Source of the DNA: Escherichia phage vB_EcoM_EC001
Length of the DNA: 64,000 nucleotides
Sequence record: MN445185.1
Strand: one strand, 5' to 3'
Shown: positions 2,795-61,595 of the stretch, piece after piece
How positions within the stretch are numbered: position 1 is the stretch's first letter
Layout of the letters: each line of letters begins with the position of its first letter
Position numbers and translations under genes: made by a program
The notes under the pieces: generated by a model
What the model was told of the DNA's origin: nothing
Seen by the model: only the letters and a program-made list of their open reading frames with translations
Database searches by the model: none

Positions 2795-5539
2795 ATGGTA
2801 GAAATTCAAATGACTTACACGAGTATGGGGGTACGGGTTGAAGTCCCTATCCGCCAGGCTGAAAGGGCCATACTCGCGTGGGCCGAAGAGAATATGCACG
2901 CCCCAAAGATGGGCAAGCAACATGGACGAATAACTACGGAACGCGGTGACGCGTACTACGCCCACATTCCGTCTTTAAGGACGTTCATTTTCCATAAAGT
3001 GTTCGCTGAGAAGATTAAACATATCCTCCAACGAGCAGCAATTGAATATGCTTTTCAGTACAAGCTTACAGAGCACCATCCTGAGCGAGGAACACCTTAC
3101 TGCTGTACATTTGATAACTACGGCTTCTCGATGGTAGAAAGCGATCCGGAGTCGCGTTTCTACTATCAGAACGAGGTTGTGGATGCAGCGTCCGATCCAA
3201 ACCGACCACAGACAATCTTTGCCATTCAGACAGGGAGAGGAAAATGCTGTGCTCATGGTACGCGTGTGCGTGTACCGGGTGGTTGGAAGAACATTGAGGA
3301 TATACAGCTAGGTGATTACGTTACGGGGCGTGACGGAAAACCAGCAATGGTCTCTGGAGTGTTCCCACAGGGTGTGGTTGACCTGTATCAGGTGACGTTT
3401 TGGGATGGTAGGAGTGTTGACGTATGTGGCGAGCACTTGTGGCAAAGCTACTACGTTAATACCACCGAGAATCGTCGCTGGGGTGTACGTGATACCCTAG
3501 AGATGAAACGTTTAATTTCGATGCCTAATCCACGGGTATACATCCCATTACCAGAACCAGAGGAAATGCCAGCTAAGGATTTTGTCATTCATCCGTATTT
3601 ACTCGGTATCCTCTTGGGTGATGGCTCCCTATCGATGCCTGGTGTTTTATACACCAAAGGCGATGTGGAGATTCGTGACCGTGTTGCTGAGGTCATGCCC
3701 GCTGGACATGCAATCCATGATTCATCGTACAGCGATGGGATAACGAAGTGCATCTCTTGTCCCGGCGGTGTTAACCTTGTCCGCAGAGAGCTTGAGCGGT
3801 TAGGGTTAATTGGCTGCAGGTCTTGGGAAAAGTTCATACCTGGAGATTACTTCGAAACGTCCATCGAACAACGGTGGGAGTTGTTGCGTGGCTTGATGGA
3901 TACTGACGGTACTGTGGATAAGGATGGTGGTACGCCTTCTTTCTGTTCCACCAGTAAAGAATTGGCTTTAGGTGTTCAGGAACTTGTGCGGTCTTTAGGA
4001 GGGATTGCAACACTACGCGAGAAACGTCCGTTCTTCACACACAACGGCGAACGTCGTGAAGGTCGTTTGGCTTATAACGTCTCCATCCGCCACAAAACAC
4101 CATCGAAACTGTTCCACCTTCCAAGGAAGAAAGAACTGTGTCGTGATAACGGACAATACACCGATATACTGAAACTCCGTGTTAAGTCTATCGAACCCAT
4201 TGGTCGTGATCTTGCCACGTGTATTCGTGTCGAGAACGACGATGCGTTGTTTGTGGTGGACAAGTGGATCGTTACGCACAACACCAAGACCTGTATGAAG
4301 TCGATGGTTAAACGGGGAACCCGTACCGCATTGATTCACCGTCCGTCGTACGTTCCCAAATGGCTGTTTGACGTCTGTGATGATGAAACAGGACTTCGTA
4401 TACTTCGTGACGAGGTGTTAGTTTGTACAGGCGTACAGGCGATTTACGACGCGCTGGAGATGGGTAAGTCGGGAGAGCTAGATAGTCGTGGTATTAAGGT
4501 AATAATCCTCCCCACGGTCTCTCTACAGCGTTTCCTGAAGGAGTACATTAACACTGCTGCGACTAACCCTGTGGACCTGGATACGTTTTATGATGTTCTG
4601 GGTGTGGGTCTGGTGGCGATGGATGAGGTGCACGAGCATTTTCACCTCGTTTACATGGCTGGTATAATGTTGAACCCTCCGGCATCGATAGAGATGTCTG
4701 CAACCCTTAAGCCGGGTAGCAGTAAAGCCTTTATCGCGGAGCGGTATTTAGAACGTTTCCCAATGGAGTACCGAATCAGTATTCCAATCATTCCGGTGGT
4801 TGACGTGAAGGCGTTGTACTATCGACTGGATGATAAGAAGTTTGCGTGGTGGGCGTCGAAGATGACGCCGTATAACCACAAGCTCTTCGAAGGGAAGCTG
4901 ATTAAAGAGAACTTGCATTTAGAATACGCGAACATGATCTGGGATGTGGTTGAGAAATCGTTCCTTAAACGGTATCAACCTGGCCAAAAATGTTTGATAC
5001 TCTTTGCTACGGTAGCGATGTGTGAGTTCTTTACCGAGTATGTGAAAGATAAGTTATCGCGTGACCCTGTATTCCATCCGTTGATGGTGGCGAAATATAA
5101 TGCAGGCGATTCGTATGACGACTTTATCCAAGCAGACTTCTCTATCTCCACACCGGGGAAAGCGGGGACTGCGGTCGATAAACCTGGGTTGGTACACATG
5201 TACATTTCAACCCCGGTAGAAGACCAGCAACTGAACGAACAGATGGCCGGTCGTCCACGTAAGATTCTCCACAACGAATGGGGTGAAATAGACCCAACGG
5301 TGTGGTTATTCCATGCGTATAACGTACCGAAGCATTGCAATTACCTGAATGCCCGCCAGAAATCACTCAAGGATGTCGTATTGTCGTTCCGTATCGCGAC
5401 ATCCCCCTACGTTGTAAGGAAATCACATGCTCACTCCGCCGCGTCCAGCAGAGCCGCTGCCACCCTACATCGGAATGACTTTAGCAAGTTTTCTCGAAAA
5501 CGTTCTAAAGGCGTATCCCGGCGTAGAAGACGTCGCTAA
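2795..5539 (+). CDS. SF2 DExH-box helicase interrupted by an intein (914 codons, about 568 aa after splicing)
   Basis: Motif I AIQTGRGK|T restored after intein removal, motif II VAMDEVHE, motif III MSATL, motif VI QMAGRPRK; ATG 2795 with GAGGGG SD; the track start 2738 is a TTG inside the upstream gene. Confidence 0.75.
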   Translation: MVEIQMTYTSMGVRVEVPIRQAERAILAWAEENMHAPKMGKQHGRITTERGDAYYAHIPSLRTFIFHKVFAEKIKHILQRAAIEYAFQYKLTEHHPERGTPYCCTFDNYGFSMVESDPESRFYYQNEVVDAASDPNRPQTIFAIQTGRGKCCAHGTRVRVPGGWKNIEDIQLGDYVTGRDGKPAMVSGVFPQGVVDLYQVTFWDGRSVDVCGEHLWQSYYVNTTENRRWGVRDTLEMKRLISMPNPRVYIPLPEPEEMPAKDFVIHPYLLGILLGDGSLSMPGVLYTKGDVEIRDRVAEVMPAGHAIHDSSYSDGITKCISCPGGVNLVRRELERLGLIGCRSWEKFIPGDYFETSIEQRWELLRGLMDTDGTVDKDGGTPSFCSTSKELALGVQELVRSLGGIATLREKRPFFTHNGERREGRLAYNVSIRHKTPSKLFHLPRKKELCRDNGQYTDILKLRVKSIEPIGRDLATCIRVENDDALFVVDKWIVTHNTKTCMKSMVKRGTRTALIHRPSYVPKWLFDVCDDETGLRILRDEVLVCTGVQAIYDALEMGKSGELDSRGIKVIILPTVSLQRFLKEYINTAATNPVDLDTFYDVLGVGLVAMDEVHEHFHLVYMAGIMLNPPASIEMSATLKPGSSKAFIAERYLERFPMEYRISIPIIPVVDVKALYYRLDDKKFAWWASKMTPYNHKLFEGKLIKENLHLEYANMIWDVVEKSFLKRYQPGQKCLILFATVAMCEFFTEYVKDKLSRDPVFHPLMVAKYNAGDSYDDFIQADFSISTPGKAGTAVDKPGLVHMYISTPVEDQQLNEQMAGRPRKILHNEWGEIDPTVWLFHAYNVPKHCNYLNARQKSLKDVVLSFRIATSPYVVRKSHAHSAASSRAAATLHRNDFSKFSRKRSKGVSRRRRRR
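3245..4282 (+). mobile_element. intein with LAGLIDADG homing-endonuclease domain (346 aa)
   Basis: In-frame insert begins with Cys right after GRGK, ends VTHN followed by Thr; two LAGLIDADG-type motifs LLGILLGDGSL and LLRGLMDTDGTV. Confidence 0.75.
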
Positions 5540-5810
5540 GAAACTCTGCACCGACGCCACTATCAACCAAGCGTTTCATTACTACATGGTCACTGAACAT
5601 TACAGTGGCCTGTTCCTTAACCAACGCGGGTTGACGTATTACGTCACCCGCACGTCAAGTATCCGTAACACTTCGTCGTACGAGCTTTATACGTACGTGT
5701 TGTGGAATGAGAACCCGGCCGGTAGTGTCGATCAGAATCCAAAGATGGCTTATCGTCTTTACTCTGAAAAATGGCACGATTGGGTGACTGTTCCACACGA
5801 TGCAAGTTAA
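5427..5810 (+). CDS. hypothetical protein (127 aa)
   Basis: ATG 5427 with AAGGA SD 6 nt upstream; overlaps helicase 3' end by 113 nt in another frame; alternative start ATG 5475. Confidence 0.55.
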   Translation: MLTPPRPAEPLPPYIGMTLASFLENVLKAYPGVEDVAKKLCTDATINQAFHYYMVTEHYSGLFLNQRGLTYYVTRTSSIRNTSSYELYTYVLWNENPAGSVDQNPKMAYRLYSEKWHDWVTVPHDAS

Positions 5811-29452: not shown

Positions 29453-29479
29453 ACGGTTATCTTCTTAAGGAGTATTAAA

Positions 29480-30070
29480 ATGCTTAGTGAACGTGCGCCC
29501 CGTTTAGAAGCGGCGGTATTGAAAATTGAACGTGTGAATATCAAATTGTTATCGAACGATGTTGGTCGGGCATCGTACAGTGACTTATGGAGTATCCCCG
29601 CACCACCGCGTACGTTGGTGGTGAACTGGTTAACGAATCGTTTGGGCTCATGCGATGTTAAAGCCAAGGATGTCGTACTAACGCTACCTGACGGCAAAAC
29701 AACTACCGGCGATGTGTTGATTGCCAGTGGTTCTAAATTGCGTATGGGCGATATTCGCTTGGGTGAGTCCTATCTTCCGGACGGTATGCGACCTATGCCG
29801 ATTGGCGAGGTAGAAAACCGAATTCTGGAAAAAGAAAGAGTGCTGGCGTTCATACGCCGCCCGCCGGATAGCACGGTGTCGTTTAAGCAACGTAAACCGG
29901 CTGCAGACAACACACCCGTTGTCGAGTGGCTCGAAAAGTATTTTGGCGAATATGGCATCAGTCCTGATGAGGTCATTCTCATCAACGGCCACGCCATGAT
30001 GCCGTTTAAGCCCAGCCCGTATTACACGATGGGACAACTGCGCGCTTCCTTCAAAGGGAAAGCACGCTAA
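29480..30070 (+). CDS. hypothetical protein (196 aa)
   Basis: CTTAAGGAGTATT SD context; followed by terminator. Confidence 0.7.
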   Translation: MLSERAPRLEAAVLKIERVNIKLLSNDVGRASYSDLWSIPAPPRTLVVNWLTNRLGSCDVKAKDVVLTLPDGKTTTGDVLIASGSKLRMGDIRLGESYLPDGMRPMPIGEVENRILEKERVLAFIRRPPDSTVSFKQRKPAADNTPVVEWLEKYFGEYGISPDEVILINGHAMMPFKPSPYYTMGQLRASFKGKAR

Positions 30071-30076
30071 AGTGTG

Positions 30077-30104
30077 GGGGACTTCGGTCCCCTTTCTTTT
30101 TTTG
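30077..30104 (+). terminator. rho-independent terminator
   Basis: GGGGAC-TTCG-GTCCCC hairpin then T-run. Confidence 0.8.
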
Positions 30105-42725: not shown

Positions 42726-42809
42726 ATGGAAGTCAATTTAGAGAGATCAAGACTAGTTGCACCGATGTTTGATGGGCGCGGTTTTATGGCGAACGGTCAC
42801 CACGTTTGA
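42726..42809 (+). CDS. possible leader peptide (27 aa)
   Basis: TAAGGAGA SD 6 nt upstream; sits between two promoter motifs and is followed by a hairpin. Confidence 0.3.
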   Translation: MEVNLERSRLVAPMFDGRGFMANGHHV

Positions 42810-59536: not shown

Positions 59537-60670
59537 ATGTCGACGCTCGATTTAGATTTAGAAGTCCTGACTGACGACTACGATCGCCTGGTCGCACTCG
59601 AAGGTCTGGGAGTTAAGCCCGACTTCCCTGCGGTTTGCGCGATTCGTCAGCGTTGGTGCTTAACCGACGACGGTGAAGATATGTTGGTTGCTCGTGAATC
59701 GCGTGAAGCGATGGAGCGTGCTCAGTTTATGACTGATACCGACCCGCGAGCTGGTATCCATCGCGCAGCAGGGCGCATTACTGCGAAGGCTGTTAAAGGC
59801 GCTGGAAAGTTAGTGGGTGCTGGACTAGGTGCAACCGCAAAGGGTGCGGGTAAACTTTCGAAAAAGCTCGCATTACGCTTTTACGATTTCGCGGAAGCGC
59901 TAGCGAAAGAACAAGCCGACCGTTTGAAAGAAATAACTTCGAAAGCTGCTTTCATGGAACGTAAGCTCAATAAGCTTAAAACGCGAATGTCGCTGCTAGA
60001 TGAGCACAAAACACTCGCTGCAGTTGACGTTCACACTAGCAGCTGGACGTCTAAAATTTGTTTTGAAGATCGACCCGATTTTGAAGCGTGTGTTCGGTTT
60101 TCTAAACAAACAAATGCGTACGAAGGCGTCGTGCAAAAGTACACGGTTTACACACGCACTGCTCTGAAGAAAAGCAAAGCATTCGAAGGGCCGGGCTTAA
60201 AACAAATCAGCAAGTCCACAAACTGGGCAGTTAAGCGTGCCGCTGGATTGCTTGGCATCATCGATCCCTTTAAAAAGGTGGAAGCTTTTCCTGTTCCTGG
60301 AAATATCGTTGTGGTTGAGCACCATAGTGGTAAGATCAGTTGGGCAATTGCGCGTGACGGCGATTATGGTGAAACCATTAAATCGCTGGATATGCATCAG
60401 TGTGGGAAAGCAATAGAGGCTGTGGAAGCACTTATCAAATCTATTGCTGCGCGCGGAACAAAGAACCGTGTTGTAGGCTACACTGGTATCTACGAAGAAG
60501 TGGAAGCGATGAAGTCCGAGCTTAAGAACCTGGAAGGGGATGAGCTGAAAGAAGCCACTTTGCGCTACCGCAATGCAATGGCGATGGAAGACGCTTTTAC
60601 CACGGCATTGGTACGTGTGGCGGAGGGTCTAATGGAATGGACGAAGCAATCGCTGGCCGAGGTGAACTGA
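59537..60670 (+). CDS. hypothetical protein (377 aa)
   Basis: AAGGAG SD. Confidence 0.7.
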   Translation: MSTLDLDLEVLTDDYDRLVALEGLGVKPDFPAVCAIRQRWCLTDDGEDMLVARESREAMERAQFMTDTDPRAGIHRAAGRITAKAVKGAGKLVGAGLGATAKGAGKLSKKLALRFYDFAEALAKEQADRLKEITSKAAFMERKLNKLKTRMSLLDEHKTLAAVDVHTSSWTSKICFEDRPDFEACVRFSKQTNAYEGVVQKYTVYTRTALKKSKAFEGPGLKQISKSTNWAVKRAAGLLGIIDPFKKVEAFPVPGNIVVVEHHSGKISWAIARDGDYGETIKSLDMHQCGKAIEAVEALIKSIAARGTKNRVVGYTGIYEEVEAMKSELKNLEGDELKEATLRYRNAMAMEDAFTTALVRVAEGLMEWTKQSLAEVN

Positions 60671-61131
60671 TGAAGATTATTACCATAGTGGGGCCAGACA
60701 CGGCTAACGGCAGGAAATATTCCACAGATATCCTCGCGCTTTATAACGAGCTGGACAAAAGCGAAATAGAAAGCTATCGAAAAGAGACGGGTATTAATGT
60801 CCGTTTTACGCCGGCTAAATCGTTAGCCGAGCGCTTCCGGGGTCGTTTACTGGCGGTCGTGGACGACGGTGTCTTGTATGGCTTTGCGCAATACCGCACG
60901 ATGACTGAAGAGGGTGTGACGATGATGTCGGTATCCTCACTGGTCGTTAGCAGCAGCGCACGTGGTAAAGGTTACGGCACCGCGTTGATGGATGCGGTAA
61001 AGAAATCCGCAACGGAAAAAGGGTGTACAGTTGTTCACCTGTCCGTGAACGCCGGTAACGCTGCCGCGAAGTCGCTCTACGACAAAGCTGGCTTTAAGGT
61101 AGGTGCTTACCAGATGTATTGGAGGGTGTGA
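60670..61131 (+). CDS. GNAT family N-acetyltransferase, tandem paralog 1 (153 aa)
   Basis: Motif A ARGKGYGTALMDAV and motif B NAGNAAAKSLYDKAGF; TGATG coupling. Confidence 0.7.
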   Translation: MKIITIVGPDTANGRKYSTDILALYNELDKSEIESYRKETGINVRFTPAKSLAERFRGRLLAVVDDGVLYGFAQYRTMTEEGVTMMSVSSLVVSSSARGKGYGTALMDAVKKSATEKGCTVVHLSVNAGNAAAKSLYDKAGFKVGAYQMYWRV

Positions 61132-61595
61132 TGAAAATTGTTTTTGTCACCAAGCCCAACTCTCCGTATGGAAAGAAATACTACGCGGACTTGTTAGGAC
61201 TACACAACAAGTTATACGACGATCAGAAAATAAAACTTGCCGACTTAAACGGTCGTGAAGGGTTTAATCAAATCTCAAAACTGGAGGAGGTTTGGGGTGA
61301 AGGTACGCTGTGCGCTTGCGCCGTTGATGACCGTGGTGTGGCTGTTGGTTTCATCACCTTTGGCTACACCAAAAAGGGACAACGTTTCCTCTGGGTATAT
61401 AACTTTTTTGTAGATGAATCGGTTCGTTCACAAGGCGTTGGCCATGAACTGATCGAAGCCGTAGAGAACTATGGCAAATCAAAAGGCTGCGCATGGATGC
61501 AGCTTAACGTGCTCGGTAATAACGACCGTGCTATTGCGTTTTATGAACGTTTCGGATTCCGAACTGAATACCAGGATATGGTAAAGGAGCTTTAA
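61131..61595 (+). CDS. GNAT family N-acetyltransferase, tandem paralog 2 (154 aa)
   Basis: Motif A RSQGVGHELIEAV and motif B NNDRAIAFYERFGF; GGAGGG SD; N-terminus parallels paralog 1. Confidence 0.7.
   Translation: MKIVFVTKPNSPYGKKYYADLLGLHNKLYDDQKIKLADLNGREGFNQISKLEEVWGEGTLCACAVDDRGVAVGFITFGYTKKGQRFLWVYNFFVDESVRSQGVGHELIEAVENYGKSKGCAWMQLNVLGNNDRAIAFYERFGFRTEYQDMVKEL

Follow-up and report, generated by a model that had tools for sequence, protein, structure and literature searches.

A LAGLIDADG intein with class 3 splicing motifs in the Walker A motif of a jumbo phage helicase

Escherichia phage vB_EcoM_EC001 (EC001; sequence record MN445185.1) is a Seoulvirus jumbo phage. We analyzed a 64,000-nucleotide stretch of its DNA, called the window here, and all coordinates are positions in that window. 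Within it, a helicase gene is interrupted at 3245-4282 by an in-frame insert. Our analysis supports the view that this insert is an intein with a LAGLIDADG homing endonuclease, lodged in the Walker A motif of a superfamily 2 (SF2) DExH-type helicase. We are fairly confident that it is a bifunctional intein of class 3, a rarer class named WCT after its Trp, Cys and Thr residues, in which splicing would be initiated by Cys326 and homing would be carried out by the LAGLIDADG domain.

An intein interrupts the P-loop of a phage helicase

The precursor protein is identical to QKN85877.1 of the same phage. Its open reading frame ends at 5539 on the plus strand and could start with a TTG at 2738 or an ATG at 2795; the ATG is the start annotated in relatives, and it is used here. 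The parts of the gene and the two endonuclease motifs are as follows.

2795-5539, plus strand: precursor gene of 914 codons plus stop, comprising the two helicase exteins and the intein between them.
2795-3244, plus strand: N-extein, 150 amino acids, with the Walker A residues IQTGRGK at its end (3224-3244).
3245-4282, plus strand: intein, 346 amino acids, with a LAGLIDADG endonuclease domain inserted into its Hint splicing domain.
3593-3628, plus strand: LAGLIDADG motif 1, PYLLGILLGDGS, with predicted catalytic Asp126.
3881-3910, plus strand: LAGLIDADG motif 2, LLRGLMDTDG, with predicted catalytic Asp221.
4283-5539, plus strand: C-extein, with the Walker A Thr, DEVH (4622-4633), SAT (4697-4705), QMAGRPR (5240-5260) and a disordered poly-Arg tail.

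The insert spans 1038 nucleotides, or 346 stop-free codons in frame with the helicase. It begins with TGC (Cys, 3245-3247) and ends with CAC AAC (His-Asn, 4277-4282), and the next codon is ACC (Thr, 4283-4285). The flanking residues are AIQTGRGK on one side and TKTCMK on the other, so that Walker A is split between its Lys and its Thr (GRGK/TKT). When the exteins are joined they read GRGKTKT, and removal of the insert thus leaves the host motif intact. An earlier note, made from the letters of this DNA, had placed a 346-codon insert between the K and T of motif I, ending in His-Asn before a Thr and carrying two LAGLIDADG-type motifs, in a host protein that keeps helicase motifs II, III and VI. 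Its boundaries proved exact to the base, and each of these motifs was located at the positions listed above.

That note had also taken the insert for an intein that carries a homing endonuclease and had proposed searching it with the corresponding profiles, an identification that both profile and structural comparisons bear out. The Pfam family LAGLIDADG_3 (PF14528) matches with 41.9 bits against a curated cut-off of 22.5 (E=1.3e-10), and the Pfam Hint profiles (Hom_end_hint and Hint_2) match from the first residue of the insert onward. Matches in NCBIfam are confined to the intein portions of intein-containing DnaB, RecA, GyrA and Tes models, and those in PHROGs are to terminase, primase and helicase families, in the parts that bear an intein. 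An AlphaFold2 model of the intein, built from 51 homologs, has a mean predicted local distance difference test score (pLDDT) of 94.3 and a predicted template modeling score of 0.92. When this model was compared with the PDB using Foldseek, PI-SceI was the top match, with a template modeling (TM) score of 0.74-0.76, followed by TliVMA, PhoVMA and PI-PfuI. The best mini-intein matches were the class 3 DnaB inteins 6bs8, 6rix and 6riy, and I-DmoI matched over the endonuclease domain. Taken together, the profile, model and fold matches indicate a full-length intein, in which a Hint domain is interrupted by an endonuclease with two LAGLIDADG motifs. Asp126 and Asp221 align to D129 and D227 of MP-Be, an intein of phage Bethlehem, and we take D218 and D326, the catalytic aspartates of PI-SceI, to be their counterparts there.

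Two further observations concern the nature of the insert. A bacterial intein-like (BIL) domain was considered and rejected because His-Asn and Thr+1 are both present. Base composition gave no mark of foreign origin, with a GC content of 0.492 in the intein and of 0.484 and 0.486 in the two exteins.

The splicing motifs point to a class 3 intein

Class 3 inteins are defined by a noncontiguous triplet of Trp at block position B:12, Cys at F:4 and Thr at G:5, together with Ser or Thr at the +1 position (PMC2807308, PMC3196547); Cys occurs at +1 in rare cases. The original definition, from 2010, also called for the absence of a Ser, Thr or Cys nucleophile at intein residue 1 (PMC2807308); texts later than Tori et al. 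2010 describe such a nucleophile as "not required" in this class. In that study, 3 of 37 WCT inteins started with Ser or Cys, and WCT inteins were found mostly in the P-loops of helicase-type and terminase proteins (PMC2807308). The splicing blocks of the EC001 intein are these.

3245-3283, plus strand: block A, CCAHGTRVRVPGG; it opens with Cys1, where alleles with about 99% identity have Ala.
3407-3448, plus strand: block B, GRSVDVCGEHLWQS; Cys61 (B:7), His64 (B:10) and Trp66 (B:12, the W of WCT).
4211-4258, plus strand: block F, LATCIRVENDDALFVV; Cys326 (F:4, codon 4220-4222), the predicted initiating nucleophile.
4262-4285, plus strand: block G and the +1 residue, KWIVTHN followed by T; Thr344 (G:5), His345, Asn346 and Thr+1.

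The motifs that hold these residues are GEHLW (His64 and Trp66), ATCIRV (Cys326) and VTHN/T (Thr344, His345, Asn346 and Thr+1). Each aligns with its equivalent in MP-Be, the "DnaB" intein of Bethlehem and the experimentally characterized prototype of class 3 (Tori et al. 2010; PMC2807308): H64, W66, C326, T344, H345, N346 and T+1 correspond one-to-one to Bethlehem H65, W67, C320, T339, H340, N341 and T+1. We had tried gp62 of Bethlehem, which is annotated as DnaB-like, as the carrier of MP-Be and set it aside as too short; MP-Be is encoded in gp11.

The same residues recur throughout the wider family. A 5.8-billion-protein collection yielded 97 homologous inteins in any host, among them PhoH, terminase, DnaB, primase and PD-(D/E)XK proteins as well as others. 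The WCT triplet is near-invariant in this set, the +1 residue is Thr or Ser in all of the homologs that can be aligned there (76/76), and 41 of the 49 that can be aligned at residue 1 have Ala there. Close homologs all have WCT, mostly with Ala1, and sit at GK/T(S) of PhoH, terminase, DnaB and SF2 helicases. We also assembled 39 inteins from the identical site, GK/T of the orthologous helicase. His B:10, Trp B:12, Cys F:4, the final His-Asn and Thr+1 are present in 39/39 of these, and Thr G:5 in 37/39. Block position B:7 is Cys or Gly, not the Thr of class 1, and is Cys61 in EC001. Residue 1 at this site is Ala in 14 inteins, Cys in 10, Val in 7, Ser in 5, and Met, Gly and Leu in one each. On a neighbor-joining tree computed with the first residues left out, at least four switches of this residue between Ala and Cys or Ser separate sister alleles. 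The most informative pairing involves EC001 itself: SPLA3, SPLA5c and JN03, all isolated and viable phages, carry the same intein at 98-99% identity, with Ala-Leu-Ala at its start where EC001 has Cys-Cys-Ala, and P0138 is another 98-99% identical allele with Ala1.

Judged by its sequence, the EC001 intein belongs, with its Cys1, to the class 3 clade and has all of the mechanism-defining residues in place. Given the WCT triplet, the predominantly non-nucleophilic residue 1 of its relatives and the near-identical Ala1 alleles, Cys1 is most likely not the initiator. Cys326 is the likely initiating nucleophile instead, and Cys1 is probably dispensable for splicing. The initial Cys that the earlier note read as an intein signature is therefore real as a residue, encoded by TGC, while the catalytic, class 1 role that such a signature implies is at odds with the WCT triplet and with the Ala1 alleles.

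Several points weigh against this assignment. The EC001 allele has Cys1, where the original definition allows no nucleophile. By sequence score, the class 1 inteins gp41-1 and PI-SceI are about equal to the class 3 DnaB mini-inteins as matches. Cys at F:4 is also known from class 1 inteins (PMC3196547), and a class 1 intein given the WCT residues did not become a class 3 splicer (PMC7664689), which means that motifs alone are no proof of mechanism. A sequence with Cys1 would also be compatible with a class 1 route, or with both routes. The class 1 route would have Cys1 undergo an N-S acyl shift, Thr+1 take over the N-extein and Asn346 cyclize, with Cys326 merely occupying F:4, a position that is normally Asp; in a variant, either cysteine could initiate. 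This was the implicit reading of the earlier note. Cys1, His64, His345-Asn346 and Thr+1 are all there to serve it, and Cys and Ser at residue 1 (10/39 and 5/39 of the same-site inteins) are more frequent than expected if the position were wholly free. Against it stand the complete WCT triplet, the Cys in place of Thr at B:7, and nearest relatives whose first residue is Ala, Val, Leu, Met or Gly. The Ala1 alleles of viable phages are especially hard to accommodate, as a residue-1 nucleophile could be catalytic in EC001 and absent from its near-twin only if another residue substitutes for it. On balance, we regard a class 1 or dual route as unlikely and favor initiation by Cys326.

One speculative idea, to which we give only a small chance, is that the polymorphism of Cys1 or Ser1 versus Ala or Val is functional: Cys1 alleles might use both routes, or a disulfide between Cys1, Cys2 or Cys61 and Cys326 might act as a redox "trap" that gates activation of the helicase in the course of infection. 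The trap is an analogy that might be drawn from the Mycobacterium smegmatis intein DnaBi1.

A predicted pathway for splicing and homing

From the residues described above, we infer the following pathway. Translation would yield a 914-amino-acid precursor in which the split of the P-loop (GRGK / T) is expected to keep the ATPase inactive until splicing. Cys326 (F:4), positioned by His64 and Trp66 of block B and by Thr344 (G:5), would attack the bond between Lys(-1) and Cys1, giving a thioester, the "block F" branched intermediate. The N-extein would then move to the side chain of Thr+1, cyclization of Asn346 would set the 346-amino-acid intein free, and an O-to-N shift would create the native Walker A sequence GRGKT in a 568-amino-acid SF2 helicase. 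Cys1 would be a tolerated, nonessential variant of a residue for which most of the clade has Ala or Val.

Once freed, the intein would be expected to act as an endonuclease through Asp126 and Asp221. During a mixed infection, it would cut intein-less helicase alleles at the site coding for GRGK/TK, and repair of the cleaved allele would copy the intein into it along with a few flanking bases.

Many related phages lack the insert, and sequence patterns suggest its movement

A homing element should be distributed sporadically, and this is what we see. When the helicase gene was compared by megablast with 50,697 phage records, 41 Seoulvirus-type records matched. Four of them, vB_EcoM_Lh1B, SPLA3, SPLA5c and JN03, contain the whole gene including the insert. 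About 35 Seoulvirus records match in two pieces that together span 1764 nucleotides, which is 2802 minus 1038. Alignment with MAFFT showed that the gap in the intein-less alleles of SEGD1 and SPN3US corresponds exactly to 3245-4282, and the exteins of SEGD1 are 99.4% identical to those of EC001. A wider protein search gave the same picture at greater distance, with helicase orthologs of about 565-569 amino acids (no intein; dozens of them) and about 907-937 amino acids (intein) interspersed across the range of 40-100% identity. The earlier note had pointed to an alignment of the joined exteins with intein-free homologs and to an intein-less allele in related phages as ways to check its proposal, and both came out in its favor.

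Sequence differences within the gene suggest that the element has remained functional and has moved recently. Alignments show that the catalytic residues for splicing and for endonuclease activity are all intact in the EC001 intein. Between EC001 and JN03, the intein differs by 23 synonymous and 6 nonsynonymous changes outside the first three codons, a ratio of nonsynonymous to synonymous polymorphism (pN/pS) of 0.08, which indicates purifying selection over the whole intein. Between EC001 and Lh1B, the intein is identical (0/1038 nucleotides different) in exteins that differ at 40/1707 positions (Fisher p=5.5e-9), as would follow from recent transfer between phage lineages.

The junctions tell a similar story. 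In comparison with the intein-less SEGD1 allele, 8 of the 20 nucleotides nearest the junction differ, compared to 7/1687 elsewhere in the exteins (p=4e-13), and 6 of the 7 changed junction codons are synonymous. The intein-less site of the SEGD1 type reads GGTCGTGGGAAG before the insertion point and ACGAAGTCG after it. The donor-type site, when joined, reads AGAGGAAAA followed by ACCAAGACC, and all five intein-bearing phages share these flanks on either side of the intein whatever their extein background. Such clustered, mostly synonymous changes next to common flanks are the pattern expected of short co-conversion tracts left by homing, and we assign two putative tracts.

3235-3244, no strand: putative upstream co-conversion tract; 5/10 nucleotides differ from SEGD1, all five synonymous.
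4283-4292, no strand: putative downstream co-conversion tract; 3/10 nucleotides differ from SEGD1, with one synonymous change and one Ser-to-Thr change.

In a cluster of 162 protein sequences, the alleles are mosaics of N-extein haplotype, Cys-Cys-Ala or Ala-Leu-Ala start, and endonuclease-subdomain type. The suggestion that the insert is a plausible mobile element thus gains indirect support from three sides: the clustered junction changes, the identical intein in divergent exteins and the low pN/pS.

Two considerations weigh against this part of our interpretation. Some of the junction substitutions could be polymorphisms that protect intein-less alleles from cleavage, instead of products of co-conversion. 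In addition, the essentiality of the helicase is assumed. Another explanation is that the insert is decayed or does not splice, or that its endonuclease is dead, and that it persists because precise removal is difficult. Decay does occur at this site in other phages, where P0198 and P0207 have inteins of 260-264 amino acids with a gutted endonuclease domain and 11/39 same-site inteins have Asn instead of the first LAGLIDADG Asp. In the EC001 allele, however, every catalytic residue of both activities is retained, and neither its pN/pS nor its recent transfer between diverged exteins fits a relic. Furthermore, the insert separates the Walker A Lys and Thr of a helicase that is conserved across jumbo-phage genera, and its carriers are plaque-forming isolates. 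We consider decay very improbable and a functional, mobile intein the better account. Finally, the idea that the 346-residue segment is an accessory domain that truly belongs to the helicase, for which nothing speaks except the preserved reading frame, can be discarded as next to impossible: a "conserved helicase domain", one of the outcomes that the earlier note held would overturn its proposal, is refuted by the interleaving of orthologs with and without the segment, including dozens of intein-less proteins and some with 99.4%-identical flanks that lack it to the base, and homologs of the segment lie in unrelated hosts (PhoH, terminase, DnaB, primase, methyltransferase and dCTP deaminase).

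Inteins at the helicase site are diverse

The EC001 type is not the only intein at this position. A second Seoulvirus lineage, represented by P0137, is 58% identical, starts with Val and resembles the intein of Erwinia phage Kwan. In P0001, the first endonuclease subdomain is replaced, which leaves 82% identity overall and about 50% over residues 108-200. P0219 and P0224 share this arrangement with P0001, with Hint parts near-identical to that of the EC001 intein and residues ~108-200 only ~50% identical, a pattern that suggests a swap of the endonuclease subdomain as the origin of the P0001-type allele. Both subdomain types recombine freely with the Cys-Cys-Ala or Ala-Leu-Ala start and with the extein haplotypes. 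Outside Seoulvirus, the orthologous helicase also has a related intein at this site in Erwinia phages Kwan and Rebecca, Xanthomonas phage RTH11 and Proteus phage 10, and in PhiPA3 and EL related inteins are found in other helicases.

Some of these elements may have lost one of their two activities. The 11 same-site inteins with an altered first LAGLIDADG motif, such as those of Kwan, P0137, P0160 and P0164, read GNG for GDG and keep the second Asp; they may be nickases or inactivated endonucleases. The EC001 allele keeps both aspartates. P0198 (264 amino acids) and P0207 (260 amino acids) have lost most of the endonuclease domain, and G:5 is Gln in P0207 and Asn in P0203. By sequence, P0198, P0207 and P0203 look like stages of degeneration in a homing cycle. 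The reverse loss may be represented by P0024, P0034, P0038 and P0040, homologs of the whole intein that stand alone as proteins of about 360 amino acids. Their first residue is Met, and His B:10, Cys F:4 and the terminal His-Asn are all missing. As with yeast HO, they seem to be independent endonucleases that descend from class 3 inteins and can no longer splice.

The host protein and its genomic neighborhood

The joined exteins match PHROG 16, "DNA helicase", with E=3.7e-58. Matches to Pfam are below threshold (ResIII, 16.5 bits with a cut-off of 22.5; DEAD also), and a sequence search of the PDB returned nothing meaningful, the best hit being an antibody chain at E=0.2. The helicase assignment rests instead on PHROG 16 and on the predicted fold. 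We modeled P0098, which is the identical protein without the intein, and obtained a pLDDT of 86 and fold matches to XPB/Ssl2 (of TFIIH), T4 UvsW, an HsdR fragment and Rad54. These matches identify the host protein as an SF2 DExH ATPase, and motifs I, II, III and VI (GRGKT, DEVH, SAT and QxxGRxR) are conserved in 24 orthologs. In treating this helicase as a replication protein, the earlier note made an assumption. Directly upstream of the helicase gene are the genes for the beta/beta' subunits of the phage multisubunit RNA polymerase (643-2748), and the same gene order, RNA polymerase followed by helicase, is found in Kwan, Rebecca and Proteus phage 10. This arrangement hints at a transcription-linked role for the XPB/UvsW-like helicase.

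At its other end, the helicase gene overlaps by its last 113 nucleotides, in a different frame, with a 127-codon open reading frame (5427-5810, plus strand) that is annotated in Lh1B and SPN3US. The overlapped tail of the helicase, roughly its last 36 amino acids, ends in RRRRRR, is conserved in orthologs and is disordered in the model, with a pLDDT below 50.

Elsewhere in the window, EC001 and SEGD1 differ by several insertions or deletions. A segment of about 630 nucleotides (29454-30082) is absent from SEGD1; its open reading frame at 29480-30070 (plus strand) encodes a 196-amino-acid protein of phrog_23313 (E=4.5e-44), and the segment may be a mobile or accessory gene. At about 42790-42809, EC001 is without some 626 nucleotides of SEGD1 that cover SEGD1 gp076, a hypothetical protein. 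Two GNAT acetyltransferase genes stand in tandem on the plus strand at 60637-61131 and 61119-61595, and the first of them (about 450 nucleotides) is absent from SEGD1, so that it is an extra copy in EC001.

Annotation and significance

In none of the phage records that we inspected, and in none of the protein names that we saw, is the insert identified as an intein. Genes that carry it are called "putative ATP-dependent DNA helicase", "terminase large subunit", "LAGLIDADG family homing endonuclease" or "Recombinase A". Of these, "terminase large subunit" (SPLA3 and SPLA5c) and "Recombinase A" (an E. coli assembly) are misnomers for the Seoulvirus helicase, and intein-bearing genes of other jumbo phages are similarly misnamed "DarB-like antirestriction", "RNA polymerase beta subunit" and "gyrA". 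Such wrong product names result from similarity between inteins. In the literature on SPN3US, Lh1B, JN03 and SPLA3, searched together with the word "intein", we found no account of the EC001 element.

Class 3 LAGLIDADG inteins are already well known from the P-loops of phage helicase-type proteins, where they were described in 2010-2011, and the EC001 element introduces no new principle. What it offers is a set of natural comparisons. In Seoulvirus, a full-length class 3 intein occurs in near-isogenic forms with Cys1 or Ala1, and these forms constitute a natural test of how important a nucleophile at residue 1 is. Several jumbo-phage genera have inteins at the same Walker A site, and within the single genus Seoulvirus at least three intein lineages, along with recombinant endonuclease subdomains, compete for it. 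Together with the empty alleles, they resemble a textbook homing cycle in culturable phages. If residue 1 should turn out to be non-neutral, these phages would provide a tractable natural system for intein class switching and for a homing cycle in progress.

Comparison with known inteins

One of the closest known counterparts is MP-Be. Like the EC001 intein, it is full-length (341 versus 346 amino acids), with a LAGLIDADG domain, it resides in a phage P-loop nucleoside triphosphatase, and its catalytic H, W, C (F:4), T, H, N and T+1 all have direct equivalents. The two are nevertheless only ~27% identical. MP-Be has Pro1 and Ser at B:7 where the EC001 intein has Cys at both, and its host is a terminase-like protein as opposed to an SF2 helicase.

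By sequence as well as fold, the best mini-intein matches of the EC001 intein are M. smegmatis DnaBi1 and M. chimaera DnaB1 (6bs8 and 6rix/6riy). They share with it the WCT triplet, a location in a helicase P-loop and Ser or Thr at +1. Unlike it, they have no endonuclease domain, start with Ala, are bacterial and are hosted by DnaB, an SF4 helicase. Redox control is a feature of DnaBi1 and has been demonstrated for that intein.

PI-SceI, the yeast VMA1 intein, is the model for the two-domain architecture, which the EC001 intein shares along with the LAGLIDADG aspartates and the fold similarity reported above. PI-SceI homes with co-conversion, and population signatures suggest a comparable process for EC001. 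In other respects the two differ: PI-SceI is a class 1 intein, with Cys1 and no WCT, it has an additional DNA-recognition region, its host is eukaryotic, and its sequence is only ~16% identical.

The three WCT inteins of Tori et al. 2010 that start with Ser or Cys (PMC2807308) resemble the EC001 intein in combining WCT with an N-terminal nucleophile. Unlike those three, the Cys1 intein of EC001 has an Ala1 form that is a near-identical allele within one phage genus, and the two forms together make up a natural point-mutant pair.

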